Assembly: GCA_947632145.1 (NCBI GenBank)
Contig: CANRNW010000003.1
Coordinates: forward strand, 8,019 to 72,018
Length of the DNA: 64,000 bases
Direction of reading: 5' to 3'
Source: an uncultured Clostridia bacterium
Lineage (GTDB): Bacteria; Bacillota; Clostridia; TANB77; CAG-508
This document shows positions 3-9,080 of the stretch, in pieces (within the stretch, counting starts at the first letter, position 1; every line of letters begins with the position of its first letter). A model generated the notes under the pieces. It did no database searches, had not been told where the DNA came from, and was given only the letters and a program-made list of their open reading frames with translations. The translations under genes were made by a program, and so were the position numbers.

Positions 3-1688
3 AACTTTTTTGGATTGTGTCCTTTTCATAAAGAGAAATCGCCTTCTTTTTCTGTTTCTCCGGATAGACAAATTTTCCATTGCTTTGGATGTGGAGCTGG
101 CGGAAATGTAATACATTTCATTCAAAAAATGGAAAATATAGATTTCAGAGATACTATGGAATTGCTTGCAGAAAGAGCAGGAATTGTTTTACCTACAATC
201 GAAAACTCTGAGGAAGATAGAAAGCAATTATTAAAGAAAAAAGTATATGAAATAAATGAAAAATCGGCACTTTTTTTTCACGAAAATTTATATAAACCAG
301 ATTCAGTTCAAGCACAAGAATACATAAAAAAGAGAAAATTAGATAATAAAACATTAAAATCTTTTAGAATAGGCTATTCTGGAAACTACAATGAATTATA
401 TACATATTTAAAAAAAGAGGGCTATTCAGATGAAGAGATAATAGCATCAACTCTTGTTATAAAAAACGAGAATGGCTCATATGTTGACAGATTTAGAAAA
501 AGACTTATGATTCCAATATTAGATGTGCGAAATAGAGTAATAGCATTTGGAGGAAGAGTTTTAGATGATAGCTTACCTAAATACATAAATTCACCAGAAA
601 GCATAGTGTATAGTAAAGGAAGAAACTTATTTGCATTAAATATTGCAAAAAATTCTAATCCACAAAAGCTTATAATTGTTGAAGGTTATATGGATGCAAT
701 ATCATTATATCAAAGAGGAATAAACAATGTTGTTGCTTCTCTTGGTACTGCACTAACTGAGGCACAAGGAAGATTACTTAGAAAGTATTGCGAAAAAGTA
801 ATAATTTCTTATGATTCAGATGGAGCAGGACAAGCAGCAACTCTAAGAGGATTAGAAATTTTAAAATCAATAGGGTGTGATGTTAGAATACTTCAAATGG
901 AAGGTGCAAAAGATCCAGATGAATATGTTATAAAATATGGTAGTGGTAGATTTAACTTATTAGTTGAGAATGCTATATCATTAGTAGAGTTTAAAGTTAA
1001 GGTATTAAAAAAACAGTTAGATATAAATAATACTAATGATAAAATAAAATTTTTAAATGAAATATCAAAAATACTAACAGCAGTAGATAATAATATAGAA
1101 CAAGAAGTATATATAGAAAAAATATCAGCAGAGTACAATATATCTAAAGAAGCGATATATGCACAAATAAATAAAATGAATTATTCTCAAAATCAAGGTA
1201 AAAAAATACTAGAAAGAACCACATATGTAAAACCTAAAATGAAAGATGATAAAAATACTGAAGCTTTGATACAAAGAGAAAATATGATTGTTTCACTTTT
1301 AATAAGTGAAGGAAAAGATGTATATGACCAAATAAAAGATATAATAACTCCACAAGATATGAAAAAAGAAGAAAATAAAGAAATAATGACAAAAATGTAT
1401 GAAGAATACAAAAACGGAAATAGTAATATAAATAACATATTAGATTTATTTGAAAATAATGAAGAAATAATAAATTATATTACTGGCATAATGGCTACAG
1501 ATTATGAAATTGCAAATGTAGGAAAGTCTATAAAAGATATCATACATATTTATAAAAAAGAAAAATTGACTAACCAAAAAAATGAAATTATAAAAAAACT
1601 AGATGATAAAAATTTACAATTAGAAGACAAGATAAACCTTGAAAAAGATTTAAATAACATTATTATAGAACTTGCAAAATTTAAGTAG
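3..1688 (+). CDS. dnaG: DNA primase DnaG (N-terminus upstream of window)
   Basis: The ORF is open to the window edge. It has the zinc finger [20 protein letters not shown] and TOPRIM motifs IVEGYMD and [11 protein letters not shown]. The track 'M' at 15 is an internal TTG. Confidence 0.95.
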
Positions 1689-1713
1689 AGTGCTAGAAAG
1701 GAAAGTGTTAAAA

Positions 1714-3141
1714 ATGCCAAAAGTAAAAAAAGAAGAGGTAAAAGTTGCAAAAGAAGAAGTAAAAAAACAAGTAAAAGTAAATAAAGAAAACAAAGAGAAA
1801 AAAGAAACAAAGCAAACTAAAAAAGCAGAAAAAACAAACAAAACGGAAAAAGTAGAAAAAGCCGACAAAACTGAAAAAACAGAAAAAACTGGAAAAAAAG
1901 TTAAAGCAGAAGAAACAGAAAAGGCAGAAAAAACGGATAAAAAAGTTAAAACAGGAGAAACAGAAAAGGCAGAGAAAACAGATAAAAAAGTTAAAACAGG
2001 AGAAACAGAAAAGGCAGAGAAAACAGATAAAAAAGTTAAAACAGAAGAAAAAAAAGAAGAAGAATCAAAAGAAGCTAATGAAAAAGTTCAAGAGATAGTA
2101 AGAAAAGCAAAAGAAAAAGGGCAAATAACATATGGAGAATTGGCAAGTGAACTAGGTGATGCAAACTTAGAGCAAATAGATAAAGTATTTGATGCTTTTG
2201 AAGAAATAGGTGTAGATGTATTAAAAGATGAAGATTTAGAAGAGCCTGATTTAGAGGATTTAGAGAGTGTAGAACCTGTAGAATACATTGATTTAATGAA
2301 CTTCGAAGGTGTAAATGTAGATGATCCAGTAAGAATGTATTTAAGGGAAATTGGAAAAATACCGTTATTAACATTTGAAGAGGAATTAGATTTAGCAAAA
2401 AGAATGTTAAATGGAGATGAAGAAGCAAAGCAAAAACTATGTGAATCTAACTTAAGATTAGTTGTAAGTATTGCAAAAAAATATGTTGGAAGAGGAATGC
2501 TTTTCCTAGATTTAATTCAAGAAGGAAATATGGGATTGATAAAGGCTGTTGAAAAATTTGATTATACTAAAGGATACAAGTTTAGTACTTATGCAACATG
2601 GTGGATTAGGCAAGCAATAACAAGAGCAATAGCAGACCAAGCAAGAACAATAAGAATACCAGTTCATATGGTAGAAACAATAAATAAACTAATTAGAACT
2701 TCTAGACATTTATTACAACAATTAGGAAGAGAACCTTCTCCTGAAGAAATTGCTAAGGAAATGGATATAAGTGTAGAGAAAGTAATGGAAATACAAAAAA
2801 TAGCACAAGATCCAGTATCACTTGAAACTCCAATAGGAGAAGAAGATGACAGCCATTTAGGTGATTTTATACAAGATGATGATTCACCAGCTCCACATGA
2901 TTCAGCTGCATACACTCTTTTAAAAGAACAACTAGAAGAGGTTATGGAGACTTTAACACCAAGAGAAGCCAAAGTATTGAAGTTAAGATTTGGATTAGAA
3001 GATGGCAAAACAAGAACTCTAGAAGAAGTTGGAAGAGAATTTATGGTAACTCGTGAAAGAATAAGACAAATAGAAGCAAAAGCATTAAGAAAATTAAGAC
3101 ATCCTAGTAGAAGTAAAAAGTTAAAAGATTATATGAACTAA
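1714..3141 (+). CDS. rpoD: Primary sigma-70 factor RpoD/SigA with a long Lys/Glu-rich repetitive N-terminal extension
   Basis: The C-terminal ~300 aa are canonical sigma-70 regions ([27 protein letters not shown]; [20 protein letters not shown]). ATG 1714 lies behind GAAAGGAAAG. The dnaG-rpoD order is classic. Confidence 0.95.
1891..2043 (+). repeat. In-frame 45-bp tandem repeat (~3.4 copies; [15 protein letters not shown] units) inside rpoD
   Basis: Copies 1936-1980 and 1981-2025 are identical. 1891-1935 is a diverged copy and 2026-2043 a partial copy. Confidence 0.85.
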
Positions 3142-3235: not shown

Positions 3236-3556
3236 ATGGAAGAAGTAAAGAAAAAAAATCCTATTAGAAAATTCTTAGATTGGTTAAAAACTCCAGATGA
3301 TGATGAATTTGTTGATGGAGAATTAAATATAAAAGCATTTGGTGATGAAACTAATGAAACTATTGAAGAATTAAAAAAATCAAACAAAAAAATAGATGAA
3401 ATGAGTAAAAGCTTCTTTGAGGAAAATAAAGCAAATTATAAAAAACGTATAAAAACACAAGGAAACGTTGAGTTACAAGGAAAAGCAAATACAGAGAAAG
3501 ATAATACAAAAATTCAACCAAGTGGTAAATCATCAAAAGTACAAGAAGAAAGATAA
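3236..3556 (+). CDS. Hypothetical charged protein (106 aa)
   Basis: ORF with upstream GAGAGG SD-like sequence. No recognisable motif. Confidence 0.5.
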   Translation: MEEVKKKNPIRKFLDWLKTPDDDEFVDGELNIKAFGDETNETIEELKKSNKKIDEMSKSFFEENKANYKKRIKTQGNVELQGKANTEKDNTKIQPSGKSSKVQEER

Positions 3557-3583: not shown

Positions 3584-3724
3584 ATGGAAAAGAATATAAA
3601 AATAGTAAATGGTAATGGATCTGAAATTGAAATATCTCCAGTATATGACCACTTAAATTCAGCAAAACCAAAAATAAAAAAAGAAAAAAAGGAAATAATA
3701 ATACCAGAAGAAAAAAAGAAATAA
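3584..3724 (+). CDS. Small hypothetical ORF (46 aa, below track cutoff)
   Basis: AGGTGAGG SD lies 7 nt before ATG 3584. Product is MEKNIKIVNGNGSEIEISPVYDHLNSAKPKIKKEKKEIIIPEEKKK. Confidence 0.35.
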   Translation: MEKNIKIVNGNGSEIEISPVYDHLNSAKPKIKKEKKEIIIPEEKKK

Positions 3725-3789: not shown

Positions 3790-3866
3790 GGCGAGGTAGC
3801 TCAGTTGGCTAGAGCACTTGGTTCATACCCAAGGTGTCGAGGGTTCGAATCCCCCTCTCGCTACCA
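3790..3866 (+). tRNA. tRNA-Met (CAU anticodon, elongator-like; a tRNA-Ile2 lysidine type cannot be excluded)
   Basis: Hand-folded cloverleaf. Acceptor GGCGAGG/TCTCGCT (two G-U pairs), D arm GCTC..GAGC, anticodon stem CTTGG/CCAAG with loop TTCATAC, T arm GAGGG-TTCGAAT-CCCCC (one A-C mismatch), encoded CCA. Confidence 0.85.
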
Positions 3867-3877
3867 CAACTTAAAAA

Positions 3878-3917
3878 AATAGCATGTTTCAATAGATTTG
3901 AGATATGCTATTTTTTT
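3878..3917 (+). terminator. Hairpin plus T-run after the tRNA
   Basis: AATAGCATGTTTCAA..TTGAGATATGCTATT stem followed by TTTTTTT. Confidence 0.6.
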
Positions 3918-4042
3918 AATTATCACATTTTTATCACATTATTGCATTAGCAAGCCAAATTGACATTTTATGTAAATTATGTTATTATGAAAATATGATA
4001 CAATAGTATTGTAATAAAAAAAGTTATCCTATATAATATAAG

Positions 4043-4072
4043 AAAATGTCAAAAAATGTCAGAAAATGAAAA
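4043..4072. promoter_or_regulatory. Three 10-bp-phased direct repeats (GAAAATGTCA / AAAAATGTCA / GAAAATGAAA) upstream of the three-gene operon
   Basis: Read directly. They lie between a TTGACA-17-TATTAT promoter-like element (3959-3987) and the GTG start at 4153. Confidence 0.3.
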
Positions 4073-4152
4073 TAAAAAAATCTTGTAAAATATTATATAA
4101 TAGTATAAAATATTCTAAAATAGAAAGAATATAAATATACTAGGAGTATGAA

Positions 4153-4791
4153 GTGAATAAAATATATATAGGATTTCACGGAACATTAAAAGAAAATAAA
4201 GAGTCTATTGAAAATAATGGATTTAAAAAATCTATATCTACAGATAAGCAACATTGGTTAGGTGAAGGAGTATATTTTTTTGAAGATGAATATTATGCAG
4301 TAGAATGGAATGTACTTGATATAAAGAAAAAAAGAAAAGAAGGAATTAATTTAAAGCCATCTGATTATATAATATTGAAAGCTTTTATAATGTGTAACTC
4401 CAATAAGATGCTAGATATGAGTTCACCAGAAGGTATTGTTTTATATAAATATTTCAAAGACAAATTAAAGGAAAAGTACATAAAAGAAGGAAATCAATCT
4501 GAGATAAATAAATTAAATGGAAGAAGTACAAAATTTTGGATGAATGCATTAGCAGATAATGGATTTTTTGATGAATTTGATGTATTGTTAGCTAGTTATG
4601 TTAGAACAATACAAGAATTAGGAAAAAATGATGATGATTTTATTAAAAATCATCAAAGGCAAATTTGTGTAAGAGAAACTAAATGTATATATAGTGTAAG
4701 AGAATATAATGATATCGATAGAGTTAAAGATTTATATAGAATTATAATTAAAAATAGAAAAATAGAAATGATAGGTGAATATAATGAATAG
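4153..4791 (+). CDS. DUF3990-like / ADP-ribosyltransferase-fold-like protein (candidate toxin), 212 aa
   Basis: GTG start 6 nt after AGGAG. The N-terminal layout IGFHGT..(25 aa)..LGEGVYFFEDEYYAVEW matches the YHGS..G.GFY.T..A.EWA pattern I associate with DUF3990. Family call is from memory, not HMM-verified. Confidence 0.55.
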   Translation: MNKIYIGFHGTLKENKESIENNGFKKSISTDKQHWLGEGVYFFEDEYYAVEWNVLDIKKKRKEGINLKPSDYIILKAFIMCNSNKMLDMSSPEGIVLYKYFKDKLKEKYIKEGNQSEINKLNGRSTKFWMNALADNGFFDEFDVLLASYVRTIQELGKNDDDFIKNHQRQICVRETKCIYSVREYNDIDRVKDLYRIIIKNRKIEMIGEYNE

Positions 4792-5038
4792 ATTAAAAAG
4801 ATTAATGAAAAAAATTGACAGTATAGTTGATAAGATGACAATAGAAGAAATAGAAGAAAGAATTAGAATAGATGAAAAAGAAAATGTTGAATTAGAGCTT
4901 TGTGGGAATGATTATAAAACAGTAGATTTTGAAGAAAAAGATATAAAATATGATATGAAAATAAAAGAACAATGTCAATATAACGAATATAATGAATATA
5001 TGGAGGAAAAAGAATGGACAAGTTTAAAAGCAAGTTAA
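4775..5038 (+). CDS. Small acidic protein (candidate antitoxin), 84-87 aa
   Basis: Overlaps the upstream stop by 17 nt (ATG 4775; the alternative ATG 4784 has better SD spacing). Overlaps the downstream start by 25 nt. Glu/Asp/Lys-rich. Confidence 0.5.
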   Translation: MNIMNRLKRLMKKIDSIVDKMTIEEIEERIRIDEKENVELELCGNDYKTVDFEEKDIKYDMKIKEQCQYNEYNEYMEEKEWTSLKAS

Positions 5039-5418
5039 TATTTAAAAAATACATAGTAGATGAGATAAATTTTAATTATAATGAAAAGTTCATAGATAAA
5101 CCAGTAAAAATAGATTTTGACATAGATAAAGAGATTGTATACATATCAGAAAAAGAAATGCAAGTGAGATTAATAGTATACTTATTTAATAATACACCGA
5201 AGGAATATCCATACAAGATGAAAGTAGCTATTAGAGGATTTTTTGAAATTGAAAATAATGACGAAAATATTAACTTTGAACCTAATGCGATTGCTATTTT
5301 ATATCCATATATAAGGTCTATAGTATCTACTTATACATCTAGTGCAAATGTTATGCCGTTAATATTACCTGTAATAAATGTAAATAAAATGTTGCAAGAT
5401 AAAGAGAAAGAGAACTAG
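5014..5418 (+). CDS. SecB-like chaperone (134 aa)
   Basis: GGAGGA SD. Aligns by eye along the whole length to E. coli SecB. The strongest match is NAIAILYPYIRSIVSTYTSSANVMPLILPVINV versus [30 protein letters not shown]. Confidence 0.75.
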   Translation: MDKFKSKLIFKKYIVDEINFNYNEKFIDKPVKIDFDIDKEIVYISEKEMQVRLIVYLFNNTPKEYPYKMKVAIRGFFEIENNDENINFEPNAIAILYPYIRSIVSTYTSSANVMPLILPVINVNKMLQDKEKEN

Positions 5419-5555
5419 TGATAGTTCTCTTTTTCTTATTTCATATCATTGAAACTACAATATATTTTTTACTTCCTATATTTCAAATAACATTGACAAA
5501 AAAATTAAAAGCATATATAATTACGGAAGTAAGAAAAATGAGGTGTGTTTTTATT

Positions 5556-6644
5556 ATGAAATATATTAAAAGAACTATTCTCTTAGCAATAATTCTTATT
5601 ATATTAAAAATATCTAGTTCATACGCAATAGATGGAGTTGTTATACAAGATGGAATTAGAGTTAGAAAAGGACCAAGCACAGATACAGCTATTGTTACAG
5701 TGCTAAATAAAGAGGCTCCAGTAGAAATTATTGAAGAAACAAATGGATGGTATAAAATTAAATATACGCAGTTAGGTAATTATGAAGGATATATGAGAAA
5801 AGATTTCATAAAGCAAACAGGTACAGGAACAATACCCGTAACAAATTCAGAACAAGCAACTCCTGCACCAACTACAACACCAACACCCGTAGACACACCA
5901 ACACCTGCAACTACGGAGCCTCAACAAAATGAAAATCCAACAATAAATTTGTTAGGGCAAAAAATAGTAAATAATGATGCAAATGTATATATATTACCAG
6001 TAGTTACATCAAGTATAAAAGATACAATTAAGAAAAATGGTGAAATTTTTGTACGAGAAATTGCAGGAAATTTTGCTTATGTAGAATATAGTGGAAAAGC
6101 AGGATGGATAAGAACTAGTTTAATACAAGAAAAACCAGAAAAAGATACAACAACTACTAATAGAGGTTCAAGTTCAAGAGAATCTGTAGTAAATGTAACT
6201 GCACAAGTAGTAAATACGCCAACAGAGAAGACAGAAGTAGTTACAACACCAGTTAGTGCAAGTTCAATAGGTGAGCAAATTGCTAGTATGTCTAAAACTT
6301 ATGTTGGTTACAAGTATGTTTATGGTGGAGCTAGCCCATCAACTGGATTTGATTGTTCAGGACTTGTATATTATATATGTGGTAAATTAGGATGCAAAGT
6401 AAATAGAACTGCAGATGCACAAGCAAACAATGGAGTTTATGTTGAAAAAGCAAACTTACAACCTGGAGATTTAGTATTTTTTACAGACTATAAAACAAAT
6501 CAAGGAATTGGGCATGTTGGAATATATATAGGAAATAATCAATTTGTACACGCATCTACTCCAACAGCTGGAGTAATAGTATCAAATCTAAGTGATGCAA
6601 GTTATGTAAAAAGATATGTAACTGCAAGAAGAGTAGATTTATAA
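5556..6644 (+). CDS. Secreted cell-wall hydrolase: SH3b domains plus C-terminal NlpC/P60 domain
   Basis: Signal peptide MKYIKRTILLAIILIILKISSSYA after AGGTG. NlpC/P60 motifs DCSGLVYYI and GHVGIYIGNNQFVHAS. Thr/Pro linker. Confidence 0.85.
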   Translation: MKYIKRTILLAIILIILKISSSYAIDGVVIQDGIRVRKGPSTDTAIVTVLNKEAPVEIIEETNGWYKIKYTQLGNYEGYMRKDFIKQTGTGTIPVTNSEQATPAPTTTPTPVDTPTPATTEPQQNENPTINLLGQKIVNNDANVYILPVVTSSIKDTIKKNGEIFVREIAGNFAYVEYSGKAGWIRTSLIQEKPEKDTTTTNRGSSSRESVVNVTAQVVNTPTEKTEVVTTPVSASSIGEQIASMSKTYVGYKYVYGGASPSTGFDCSGLVYYICGKLGCKVNRTADAQANNGVYVEKANLQPGDLVFFTDYKTNQGIGHVGIYIGNNQFVHASTPTAGVIVSNLSDASYVKRYVTARRVDL

Positions 6645-6677: not shown

Positions 6678-9080
6678 ATGGTTAAAAGACCAATTGTAAT
6701 TGCCTCTATAGGATATATGTTAGGAATAATTTTAGGGCTATATTTTGAAAAAAGTATAGCTCTAATTTTTTTAGGAATTTTAATTATAGTTTTTTTAATA
6801 AAGTTTTTAAATAAAAATATTAAAAGATATTTAAAAGTCATATTTCCTAAAAAAATGATATTCATTTTATTTGTATTTATTATAATAGGCGCAATTTATA
6901 GTTTTACATTAGATAGTAGGTATAATAAAATCTATGGAATCGATAAAAACGTTGAGATAACAGGGGCTATAGAAACAGTTGAAAATAAAAATTATTCAAA
7001 TAAATACATTTTAAAAGTAAAAAGTATAGACAAAAAACAATATGCGAATTTAAAACTAATACTATATGTAAAGAAAAACCAAGACATTTTAGAATATGGA
7101 GATTATATAAAATTCATAGCAAAATATACTAAACCAGAAGATAGTAGGAATTATAAAGGATTTTCATATAGAGATTATTTAAAACAAAATAATATTTATG
7201 GAACAGTAAATGTAGTGAATACAATACAAATACTAGAAAAAAACAAAACAAGTTTTATAGAAAGAAATATAAATGCATTAAGAAATAAAATAATTAAAGA
7301 TATAAATAACAATTTGCCAGAAGATGAGGCTTCAGTTTTTTTAGGAATATTACTAGGAGAAAAGTCTCAGATTTCAGATGAAATAAATACATATTTTAAA
7401 AATGGAAATATGGCACACATATTAGCCATATCTGGTGCTCATGTAAGTTATATAGTTATTATAATAAATTTGTTTTTTGGGAAAATGCAAAAGAGGTTTT
7501 CTAAAATTTGCATTATAATAATTTTAATCTTTTTTATGATGCTTACAAATTTTAGCCCATCTGTTGTAAGAGCTTGTTTAATGACTATAAGTGTTTGTTT
7601 TTCAAAATTAGTTCATAGAAAATCTGACATATATAATAATTTAAGTTTATCGGCTTTAATAATCTTATTTTTTAACCCATATAAATTATTTAATATAGGT
7701 TTTGAATTGACATTTTTAGGAACTTTAGGAATAGTTTTTATAAGTCCTAAATTATGTAAAAAAGAAAATAATAATGAAAAACAAAATATACTAAAGAATA
7801 AATTGAAGAAAGTAATAAAAGATTCAATAGTAATTTCTATATCTGTGCAAATTCTAATTGCACCAATAATTATTTTAAATTTCAATGCAATTTCATACAA
7901 TTTTTTAATTTCTGGAATAATATCAACTCCAATATTTGCTTTAATTATGATAATAGGTATTTGTTTCTTAATACTAAGTCCTTTAAGAATAATTCTTTAT
8001 CCAATTATAAGAATATTAGTAGGATTTTTAATATGTATATCTAAAGCTTTATCAAATTTACCATTTTCTAGTATTACAATACCAACACCTAATCTAATTT
8101 TTATAATAACATATTACATAATTTTGTTTTTAATTTTTATCTTCCAAAATAAATTATTTCATAGAATCTTTAAAAATAGAGAAAAAATCAAAAGAACAAT
8201 GAAAAAAATTATAATAGTAATTATAATAATAAGTTTGATTTTTCAATTGTTTAATAATTTTAGTTATAAGTATTTACGAATTTATTTTATAGATGTAGGA
8301 CAAGGAGATTCAAGTTTACTTATTACTCCAAAACATAAAACAATTCTAATTGATGGTGGTGGAAGTTCAGATAAAGATTATGATATAGGAAAAAATATTT
8401 TAGTACCATATCTGCTAGATAGAGGTGTTTGGACTATTGATTATTTAATGGTTTCACATTTCGATAATGACCACTGCGGAGGGCTTATGTATTTATTAAA
8501 AAATTTAAAAGTGAAAAATATACTTATATCTAAGCAAGCCAAAGTAAGCGAAGAGTATACAAAATTTTTGGAGATTGCTAATGAAAAACATATAACTATA
8601 AAAGTTGTACAAAAAGGGGATGTAATTACTATTGAAAAAGATTTAAGAATTTATGTATTGTATCCTTCTTATAATCTGGAATTTGATGATTTAAATAATA
8701 ATTCTTTAGTTGTAAAATTAGTGTATAAAAATTTTAGTATGCTATTTACTGGAGATATTGAAAAAGAGGCAGAAAATGAAATATTAAAAATGTATGGTAA
8801 AAATGTGCTAAAGAGTACTGTATTAAAAATAGCTCATCATGGTTCAAAAACATCATCAACACAAGAATTTATAAAGTTGGTTAATCCGAAAATTGCTTTA
8901 ATAGGAGTTGGAAAAGACAATAATTTTGGACATCCGAATGAAGAAATTTTAGAAAGACTAAATAGTTTTAAAGTAAAGGTATTTAGAACAGATGAATGCG
9001 GAGAGATACAAATAAGAACTAATGGAAGTGATGAAAAGCAACTAAAAGTAGTTTCAAAATTTAATAATATAATGGATTAA
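6678..9080 (+). CDS. comEC: DNA internalisation competence protein ComEC/Rec2 with C-terminal metallo-beta-lactamase domain
   Basis: Polytopic membrane core (competence domain) plus FIDVGQGDS..HFDNDHCGG..AHHGS motifs. Confidence 0.9.
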   Translation: MVKRPIVIASIGYMLGIILGLYFEKSIALIFLGILIIVFLIKFLNKNIKRYLKVIFPKKMIFILFVFIIIGAIYSFTLDSRYNKIYGIDKNVEITGAIETVENKNYSNKYILKVKSIDKKQYANLKLILYVKKNQDILEYGDYIKFIAKYTKPEDSRNYKGFSYRDYLKQNNIYGTVNVVNTIQILEKNKTSFIERNINALRNKIIKDINNNLPEDEASVFLGILLGEKSQISDEINTYFKNGNMAHILAISGAHVSYIVIIINLFFGKMQKRFSKICIIIILIFFMMLTNFSPSVVRACLMTISVCFSKLVHRKSDIYNNLSLSALIILFFNPYKLFNIGFELTFLGTLGIVFISPKLCKKENNNEKQNILKNKLKKVIKDSIVISISVQILIAPIIILNFNAISYNFLISGIISTPIFALIMIIGICFLILSPLRIILYPIIRILVGFLICISKALSNLPFSSITIPTPNLIFIITYYIILFLIFIFQNKLFHRIFKNREKIKRTMKKIIIVIIIISLIFQLFNNFSYKYLRIYFIDVGQGDSSLLITPKHKTILIDGGGSSDKDYDIGKNILVPYLLDRGVWTIDYLMVSHFDNDHCGGLMYLLKNLKVKNILISKQAKVSEEYTKFLEIANEKHITIKVVQKGDVITIEKDLRIYVLYPSYNLEFDDLNNNSLVVKLVYKNFSMLFTGDIEKEAENEILKMYGKNVLKSTVLKIAHHGSKTSSTQEFIKLVNPKIALIGVGKDNNFGHPNEEILERLNSFKVKVFRTDECGEIQIRTNGSDEKQLKVVSKFNNIMD

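Follow-up and report, generated by a model that had tools for sequence, protein, structure and literature searches.

A stretch of 64,000 nucleotides (nt) from an uncultured Clostridia bacterium (GenBank assembly GCA_947632145.1, contig CANRNW010000003.1, positions 8,019 to 72,018 of the forward strand), referred to below as the window, carries three overlapping genes directly behind a tRNA-Met gene. Our analysis indicates that they very probably form a self-contained cassette of the CmdTAC (PD-T4-9) type, a toxin-antitoxin-chaperone (TAC) system that would most likely serve in abortive-infection defence against phages. Membership of the locus in this kind of system is well supported. The kind itself is already known, and by its sequence the locus in the window is a clostridial copy, distant from that of Escherichia coli.

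PD-T4-9 was described in 2022 as a toxin-antitoxin-chaperone anti-phage system of E. coli ECOR22 (PMC9519451). It was later renamed CmdTAC and its mechanism was worked out in 2024 (PMC11618068; bioRxiv 10.1101/2024.02.24.581848; Vassallo 2022, 2024; Mets 2024). The remark in an earlier note on this DNA that no TAC module with an ADP-ribosyltransferase (ART) toxin was known to have been characterised was thus outdated (PMC9519451; PMC11618068; bioRxiv 10.1101/2024.02.24.581848). CmdT is an ART whose triad is H-Y-[E/D/Q] and whose Y41A mutant is inactive; its target is single-stranded mRNA, in which it modifies adenine at N6 within GA dinucleotides, and translation is blocked (PMC11618068; bioRxiv 10.1101/2024.02.24.581848). 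CmdA helps CmdT to fold and neutralises it; it has helices in its N-terminal part and a long, disordered tail for chaperone addiction with LAA or AA at the end, and ClpXP degrades it when the SecB-like CmdC gives no protection (PMC11618068; bioRxiv 10.1101/2024.02.24.581848). CmdC, a SecB homologue, assembles as a tetramer, the CmdTAC complex has a composition of 1:1:4, and abortive infection is triggered when the T4 capsid protein draws CmdC off the complex (PMC11618068; bioRxiv 10.1101/2024.02.24.581848). Both E. coli systems that were tested, those of ECOR22 and O112ab:H26, protect against phages (PMC11618068; bioRxiv 10.1101/2024.02.24.581848), and the authors report homologues in Gram-positive bacteria (PMC11618068).

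Two definitions of the system have been published: a CmdT homologue followed by a second open reading frame (ORF) and a SecB-like third gene (PMC9519451), or matches to CmdT and CmdC hidden Markov models (HMMs) at most two genes apart (PMC11618068). CmdA was left out of system calling as too variable (PMC9519451; PMC11618068). With its gene order and its matches to the profiles PD-T4-9_A and PD-T4-9_C, the window locus fits either definition; the HMMs applied were those of PADLOC and not those of DefenseFinder.

Gene organisation

The three genes lie on the + strand, 3′ of the tRNA-Met (CAT) gene (3790-3866, + strand), which was identified by ARAGORN and by Rfam (tRNA, 61 bits) and was the sole match in an Rfam scan of the window. 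As the earlier note had described, they overlap one another, with ORFs at 4153-4791, 4775-5038 and 5014-5418. The first, a cmdT-like toxin gene, has a GTG start and codes for a predicted ADP-ribosyltransferase of 212 amino acids (aa). The second, a cmdA-like putative antitoxin gene, can be read from GTG 4775 (87 aa) or from ATG 4784 (4784-5038, 84 aa). Gene callers on four metagenomic contigs with an identical toxin place the start at ATG 4784, which has an AGGTGA Shine-Dalgarno sequence upstream; the overlap with the toxin gene is 8 nt with this start and 17 nt with the GTG start. The third, a cmdC-like gene for a SecB-family chaperone of 134 aa, overlaps the second by 25 nt. A Shine-Dalgarno sequence is present before each of the three ORFs, and the overlaps suggest translational coupling. 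The order toxin, antitoxin, chaperone, already proposed in the earlier note, is upheld by the family assignments of the first and third genes and by the antitoxin-like features of the second. With a candidate promoter and a terminator of their own on either side, the three genes appear to be a self-contained cassette.

A predicted ADP-ribosyltransferase toxin

The product of the first gene matched the PADLOC profile PD-T4-9_A with E = 2e-5, and the same profile was matched by 41 of its 49 relatives. The only Pfam match, below threshold, was to the PARP catalytic domain, which was also found in 9 of the 49. The family is large, with 1,630 clusters at 50% identity (E ≤ 1e-3). An AlphaFold2 model of the toxin, built from the 49 relatives, reached a predicted local distance difference test (pLDDT) score of 85.9 and a predicted template modelling (pTM) score of 0.82. 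When this model was compared with PDB by Foldseek, the top 50 matches were almost all PARP ART domains (probability 0.99); comparison with a viral library returned ART-PolyVal and PARP domain proteins, with DarT as a weak fold match. The family profile places H9 and Y41 on the catalytic H and Y of PARP16. Both residues are conserved in 195 of 195 sequences among the 196 family members aligned, and Q170, which sits in a Q-I-C-V strand, in 174 of 183. Taken together, the profile and model data point to a predicted ADP-ribosyltransferase of the PARP/diphtheria-toxin type with an H9/Y41/Q170 triad, and agree with the ART-like fold suggested in the earlier note.

These relationships became visible only at the level of the family. 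A phmmer search of PDB with the single toxin sequence returned nothing useful, so that the family profile was needed, and one unannotated fragment was all that tblastn of the toxin retrieved from GenBank phages. Neither the first nor the second gene matched TAC families of the HigB/RelE, MqsR or HicA type in Pfam or NCBIfam, in line with the earlier exclusion of HigB, HicA and MqsR for gene 1. Between clades of the toxin family a central helical insert (residues 92-135) and the C-terminal helix vary.

At least one prophage-borne clade departs from this pattern. The CmdT-like toxin at 5143-5733 of survey loci L168 and L170 keeps H and Y, with RKMVCV in place of RQICV and LFLGFG in place of WLGxG. 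This clade lacks the near-invariant Q and W; its toxin may be inactive or may use another third residue.

The putative antitoxin and the chaperone

The product of the second gene is small and acidic, as the earlier note had expected of an antitoxin. Its N-terminus has a helix-[TSN]x[ED][ED]-helix pattern in common with E. coli CmdA, and its C-terminal half, acidic and with many aromatic residues, ends in ...EWTSLKAS. It is 65% identical to the antitoxin of the related locus L005, and the WTS-KAS tail is kept in that of L165, which is 33% identical overall. To place this protein in a wider context, we considered the 36 distinct middle ORFs found between a toxin and a chaperone gene. They are 64-127 aa long and acidic in 29 of 36 cases; 24 end in AA, 5 in AS and 5 in VA, so that these endings together account for 34 of 36 (~94%), compared with ~8% of background ORFs. 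The second gene is predicted on these grounds to be CmdA-like: small and acidic, with a helical N-terminal part and an aromatic-rich tail that ends, in this case, in -KAS.

The product of the third gene matched Pfam SecB with 35.7 bits (gathering cut-off 26) and PD-T4-9_C of PADLOC with E = 6.7e-20. A family profile made from 50 homologues found SecB chains only in PDB, and this profile was needed, as a phmmer search of PDB with the single chaperone sequence returned spurious arrestin matches only. The alignment with SecB that the earlier note had made by eye was reproduced by HMMER, in which LYPYIRSIVS...LPVINV of the window protein is paired with LFPYARELVS...LSPVNF of Haemophilus influenzae SecB. 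The AlphaFold model (pLDDT 89.6) has four strands, a long helix and a C-terminal helix. Its best Foldseek match is E. coli SecB (1QYN), with a template modelling (TM) score of 0.76, and it also matches Mycobacterium tuberculosis Rv1957 in complex with the chaperone-addiction (ChAD) peptide (5MTW; TM 0.62-0.69). By sequence and model this is a SecB-fold chaperone of the TAC type and, by analogy with CmdC, probably a tetramer.

With the housekeeping SecB of E. coli and H. influenzae it shares the fold and the helix-1 motif [LF]-[YF]-P-[YF]-x-R. It differs from them in falling below the cut-offs of the NCBIfam SecB equivalogs (TIGR00809 / PRK05751), all of which it failed with 16-34 bits where 103-244 are called for, in being accessory, and in overlapping an antitoxin gene. 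To our knowledge, the host lineage is not expected to export proteins via SecB.

Comparison with E. coli CmdTAC and other systems

For direct comparison, an E. coli CmdTAC locus was found by searching with the published Y41A mutagenesis primer; it had not been reached by DNA similarity from L120 and L110, two enterobacteria-like viral loci, in either near or distant mode. In strain N2250, the source of the recovered locus, it is part of the variable region of a P2-like prophage, with a DinI-like gene on one side and the portal gene on the other. Like the ECOR22 locus it measures 1,214 bp, and primer CV111 matches its start exactly.

The toxin family profile aligned with E. coli CmdT with an hhalign probability of 94.4% (E = 8.8e-8), and in hmmsearch it gave 36.6 bits over residues 7-172, nearly the full length. 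BLASTP of the window toxin itself gave 40% identity over 52 aa of the N-terminal part (E = 2e-7). The motifs IGFH, WLxxGxYF[WF], A..W and RQ[IM]CV are aligned between the window toxin family and E. coli CmdT; in this alignment H9, Y41 and Q170 of the window protein fall on the E. coli H, the Tyr of the Y41A primer and the Q of RQQMCV. We infer that the ECOR22 protein starts two codons downstream of the first possible position, at a GTG, since no other start agrees with the published number Y41; the catalytic H and Y of the E. coli protein would then be residues 9 and 41, the same as in the window protein. Overall identity to the E. coli proteins is low (toxin ~20-21%, antitoxin ~14%, chaperone ~24%), and the window cassette would for that reason be a distant member of the CmdTAC group.

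The two cassettes agree in gene order (toxin, small antitoxin, SecB-like chaperone) and in size (1,266 bp in the window and 1,214 bp in E. coli). Both code for an ART-fold toxin, predicted in the window, with H and Y at equal positions and the RQ[IM]CV motif, for an antitoxin, likewise predicted in the window, with N-terminal helices, a long C-terminal tail and an alanine-rich end, and for a chaperone that, in the window, is recognised by PD-T4-9_C; both are accessory and tied to mobile elements. Among the differences, the window toxin is extended by a further C-terminal helix, and -KAS takes the place of the -LAA or -AA end of the antitoxin. The window cassette belongs to a Gram-positive Clostridia lineage, is known from sequence alone, and stands by itself next to a tRNA gene amid core genes, whereas the E. 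coli copy resides in a P2-like or other prophage.

With the classical TAC systems (M. tuberculosis HigBA1-Rv1957, MqsRAC, HigBAC) the window locus shares a SecB-like chaperone encoded together with a toxin-antitoxin pair and, further, a chaperone whose model superposes on Rv1957 (5MTW) and a putative antitoxin whose C-terminal extension is consistent with chaperone addiction. However, the predicted toxin is an ADP-ribosyltransferase and not an RNase of the HigB, MqsR or HicA type, and a DNA-binding domain like that of HigA or MqsA cannot be recognised in the antitoxin. DarTG is likewise a toxin-antitoxin defence system with an ART toxin that modifies nucleic acid: DarT modifies thymidine in single-stranded DNA and is neutralised by a macrodomain antitoxin. 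The window locus, in contrast, has a chaperone and no macrodomain, and the resemblance of its toxin to DarT is only a weak one of fold.

Relatives and genomic setting

A survey of gene neighbourhoods comprised loci with toxin relatives on 80 viral and 5 metagenomic contigs (numbered here with L), with 83 toxin ORFs in all. A SecB-like ORF was present within 900 nt downstream of 61 of the 83, and six more were cut by contig ends. About 16 CmdT-like ORFs on viral contigs have room downstream and no detectable SecB-like gene, many of them also without an obvious small ORF downstream. They include L097, L103, L117, L129, L133, L134 and L140, as well as L143, L144, L149, L158, L161 and L163, several in high-GC hosts. 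These may be variants with two genes or with CmdT alone, or their partners may have diverged strongly. Conservation follows the order chaperone > toxin > antitoxin at every distance sampled, which is consistent with the published high variability of CmdA.

The L005 triad is 70% identical to that of the window, and the triads of L165-L170 carry chaperones 54-66% identical to the window chaperone. All of these lie directly downstream of prophage holin and endolysin genes, which are of several different types. In L005 (8100-8429), L165 (6653-6997), L166 (6664-7008) and L167 (6653-6997) a gene on the opposite strand comes after the triad. It encodes a 109-114-aa HTH_3/HTH_19 protein with a weak SpoOE-like match, which is not found in the window and may be a regulator at the prophage edge. 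In L170 a Y1 (IS200-type) transposase gene (7004-7774) lies ~600 bp downstream of the triad.

In the window, the cassette is surrounded by core genes: dnaG, sigA, a conserved 106-aa ORF and the tRNA gene on one side, and genes for an SH3-NlpC/P60 hydrolase and ComEC on the other. A sister genome, the Clostridia metagenome-assembled genome L006, has the same order (dnaG, sigA, 106-aa ORF, tRNA-Met, NlpC/P60, ComEC). In L006 the cassette site is occupied by 151 unrelated bp, compared with 1,608 bp in the window (3867-5474): homology ends at 3866, with the tRNA gene as the left edge outside the cassette, and restarts at 5475. The DNA on either side of this insertion is 91-92% identical between the two genomes, the tRNA 92% and the NlpC/P60 protein 78%. 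The insertion holds the upstream hairpin, the candidate promoter, the three genes and the terminator. In a search for marks of its arrival, the 3′ end of the tRNA turned out not to be duplicated, the flanks gave no direct repeats that were meaningful, no integrase ORF was found nearby, and the composition showed no anomaly.

The cassette is, on this comparison, accessory DNA that behaves as mobile cargo, because the site is empty in the syntenic L006 and the relatives are mostly prophage cargo located just downstream of lysis genes. Its position beside the tRNA gene looks incidental, since there is neither a duplicate of the tRNA 3′ end nor an integrase nearby and since the relatives were found in prophages rather than at tRNAs.

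Expression signals

The spacer between the tRNA and the toxin gene (3867-4152, 286 bp) contains a terminator-like hairpin on the + strand (3871-3919) made up of an A-run, a stem and a T-run. It is an inverted repeat with 22-nt arms, 91% complementary, and the RNA fold has an energy of -24.2 kcal/mol (z = -8.3). Such a hairpin would shield the cassette from read-through from the tRNA gene. It is followed at 3960-3988 (+ strand) by a candidate sigma-70 promoter for the operon, TTGACA and TATTAT separated by 17 nt, with the TG extension of an extended -10 element (11 of 12 positions in a consensus scan). The motif TT[GT]ACA...TTATGTAAATTATG is common to this candidate promoter and the homologous cassette in L165.

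Short direct repeats surround the candidate promoter (3921-4061, + strand). TATCACATT occurs at 3921 and 3932, 11 nt apart, with a whole-window count as expected by chance. AAAATGTCA occurs at 4043 and 4053, 10 nt apart, and a third, inverted copy at 3961-3969 covers the -35 box; the window holds 6 copies where 2.3 are expected, a number matched by 2 of 100 shuffles. A 20-nt repeat with a spacing of 97 nt was also detected in the spacer region. The copies of TATCACATT and of AAAATGTCA are spaced by about one helical turn, and the statistical support for these short repeats is weak to moderate. They may be operator sites, and an autoregulatory role is speculative. As to the AT-rich spacer with phased repeats of the earlier note, the repeats do exist, but they are short, and the AT-richness (~22-25% GC) is ordinary for this genome.

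An intrinsic terminator on the + strand (5402-5437) overlaps the stop codon of the chaperone gene; a 16-bp stem is followed by a T-run (-21.1 kcal/mol, z = -5.2). Downstream of it, at 5493-5521, lies a promoter for the next gene that agrees with the consensus at 12 of 12 positions. The mechanically called ORF of that gene, 5418-6644, starts at the stop codon of the chaperone gene. A more plausible start for the NlpC/P60 protein is ATG 5556 (MKYIKRT..., with a signal-peptide-like N-terminus), after this promoter and a GAGGTG Shine-Dalgarno sequence.

Proposed mechanism and alternatives

The mechanism that we propose is carried over by homology from E. coli CmdTAC. In the uninfected cell the chaperone, probably as a tetramer, would grip the C-terminal chaperone-addiction tail of the antitoxin, and the antitoxin held in this way would assist folding of the toxin and keep it neutralised. 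On infection, a newly made and abundant phage structural protein would compete for the chaperone. The released antitoxin would then be degraded by a Clp-type protease via its alanine-rich C-terminal end, and the freed toxin would use nicotinamide adenine dinucleotide (NAD+) to ADP-ribosylate single-stranded mRNA. Translation would halt and the phage would not replicate. The main uncertainty concerns the GA specificity towards mRNA in a toxin so divergent, and -KAS as the same degron.

Several observations weigh against a CmdTAC-type defence cassette. The match of the toxin to PD-T4-9_A is weak (22 bits), against solved ARTs it reaches only modest TM-scores in Foldseek (0.35-0.42, E ~4e-3), it has ~30 additional helical residues at the C-terminus that are missing from 180-aa relatives, and its overall identity to E. 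coli CmdT is low, as given above. The second gene had no HMM match in the profile libraries, Pfam, NCBIfam and PADLOC among them, as published for CmdA, and its -KAS end differs from the tested -AA/-LAA degron. We know of no phages of this uncultured Clostridia lineage.

It is rather unlikely that the architecture and family are those of CmdTAC and that the clostridial toxin nevertheless hits another target, be it structured RNA, tRNA, DNA or protein, or merely consumes NAD+. Such a change would agree with the ~20% overall identity to E. coli CmdT and with the restriction of the BLAST alignment to the N-terminal, NAD-binding half, as well as with the differences between clades in the central insert and the C-terminal helix; Foldseek also finds the NatT toxin and DarT-like proteins among the ART folds. 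Against it, the signature motifs shared with E. coli CmdT are kept across the 196 family members, among them RQ[IM]CV, where the third catalytic position lies, and the CmdA-like and CmdC-like partners are retained. Very unlikely, in our view, is a selfish TAC addiction module or a remnant of prophage cargo with no defence role in the host. The cassette does stand alone among core genes with no phage genes nearby, its close relatives lie at prophage ends so that it could be a left-over, and the first descriptions of TAC systems were not concerned with defence (PMC11618068). However, all three ORFs are intact and have Shine-Dalgarno sequences, a promoter-like site and a terminator-like hairpin; both tested E. 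coli CmdTAC systems defend against phages; and cargo loci at prophage ends are typical sites of defence genes. The prophage setting of the relatives agrees with a defence role.

That the third gene codes for a housekeeping SecB export chaperone, with the first two as unrelated neighbours, is effectively refuted. The Pfam SecB match and a fold nearest to that of E. coli SecB could be explained in this way, but the equivalog scores fall far short of their cut-offs, the PD-T4-9_C match is much better than the SecB match, the gene is missing from the syntenic L006 and overlaps the second gene, and its homologues are always in the same triad within prophages. That gene 1 belongs to Pfam DUF3990 (PF13151), as suggested in the earlier note, and not to the CmdT family is a reading to which we give a negligible chance. 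It drew on a GFHGT...GxGxYF resemblance, and the assignment was not reproduced: the window protein had no PF13151 match at E ≤ 1 and none of the 49 relatives matched at E ≤ 0.01, the relatives matching PD-T4-9_A and, less often, PARP instead.

A CmdTAC-type defence cassette remains our preferred reading. An extension of it, which we consider unlikely, is that the clostridial clade is a functionally distinct variant, marked by a ~210-aa toxin with the extra C-terminal helix and by the WTS-KAS antitoxin end. In such a variant the toxin might act on another nucleic acid or on a protein, the antitoxin might depend on a protease or degron different from ClpXP and -AA, and the chaperone might sense a structural protein of clostridial phages; the unit of terminator, promoter, three genes and terminator might also move without an integrase between prophage cargo and chromosomal intergenic sites.

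The surprising part, an mRNA-modifying ART toxin in a TAC system, was already published in 2022-2024, and the locus opens no new question. It is a well-delimited Gram-positive example of CmdTAC, from an apparently gut-associated member of the Clostridia, with a clean empty-site comparison. The near-invariant H, Y and Q in ~200 CmdT-like proteins, the AA/AS/VA antitoxin ends and the conservation order of the three proteins could guide experiments on degron and sensor specificity.

Other features of the window

Some further features were observed outside the cassette. The sigA gene (1672-3141) contains at 1757-2073 a tandem repeat rich in K/E/T codons, with periods of 9, 45 and 90 nt, in the N-terminal region of the sigma-70 protein. 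A 15-residue stretch is present three times, and the protein has 489 aa compared with 447 aa in L006; close relatives thus seem to differ in the number of repeats. Two small ORFs between sigA and the tRNA-Met gene, 3236-3556 (106 aa) and 3584-3724 (46 aa), match nothing in Pfam. The 106-aa ORF is kept at the same position in L006 (7137-7457), where the DNA of the 46-aa ORF region is ~92% identical.

Two more tandem repeats were found further downstream. At 43981-44107, within ORF 41537-44125, the 30-nt unit CCAAGTCCATCACCAAGCCCATCACCAAGT is repeated in ~4 copies (91% matching) and codes for a linker rich in Pro and Ser, close to the C-terminus of a protein of 862 aa. At 63639-63715, in the 3′ end of ORF 62440-63741, a 9/27-nt repeat of ACCAGAACAACCCCAAGAACTACAAGA is present in ~2.7 copies.

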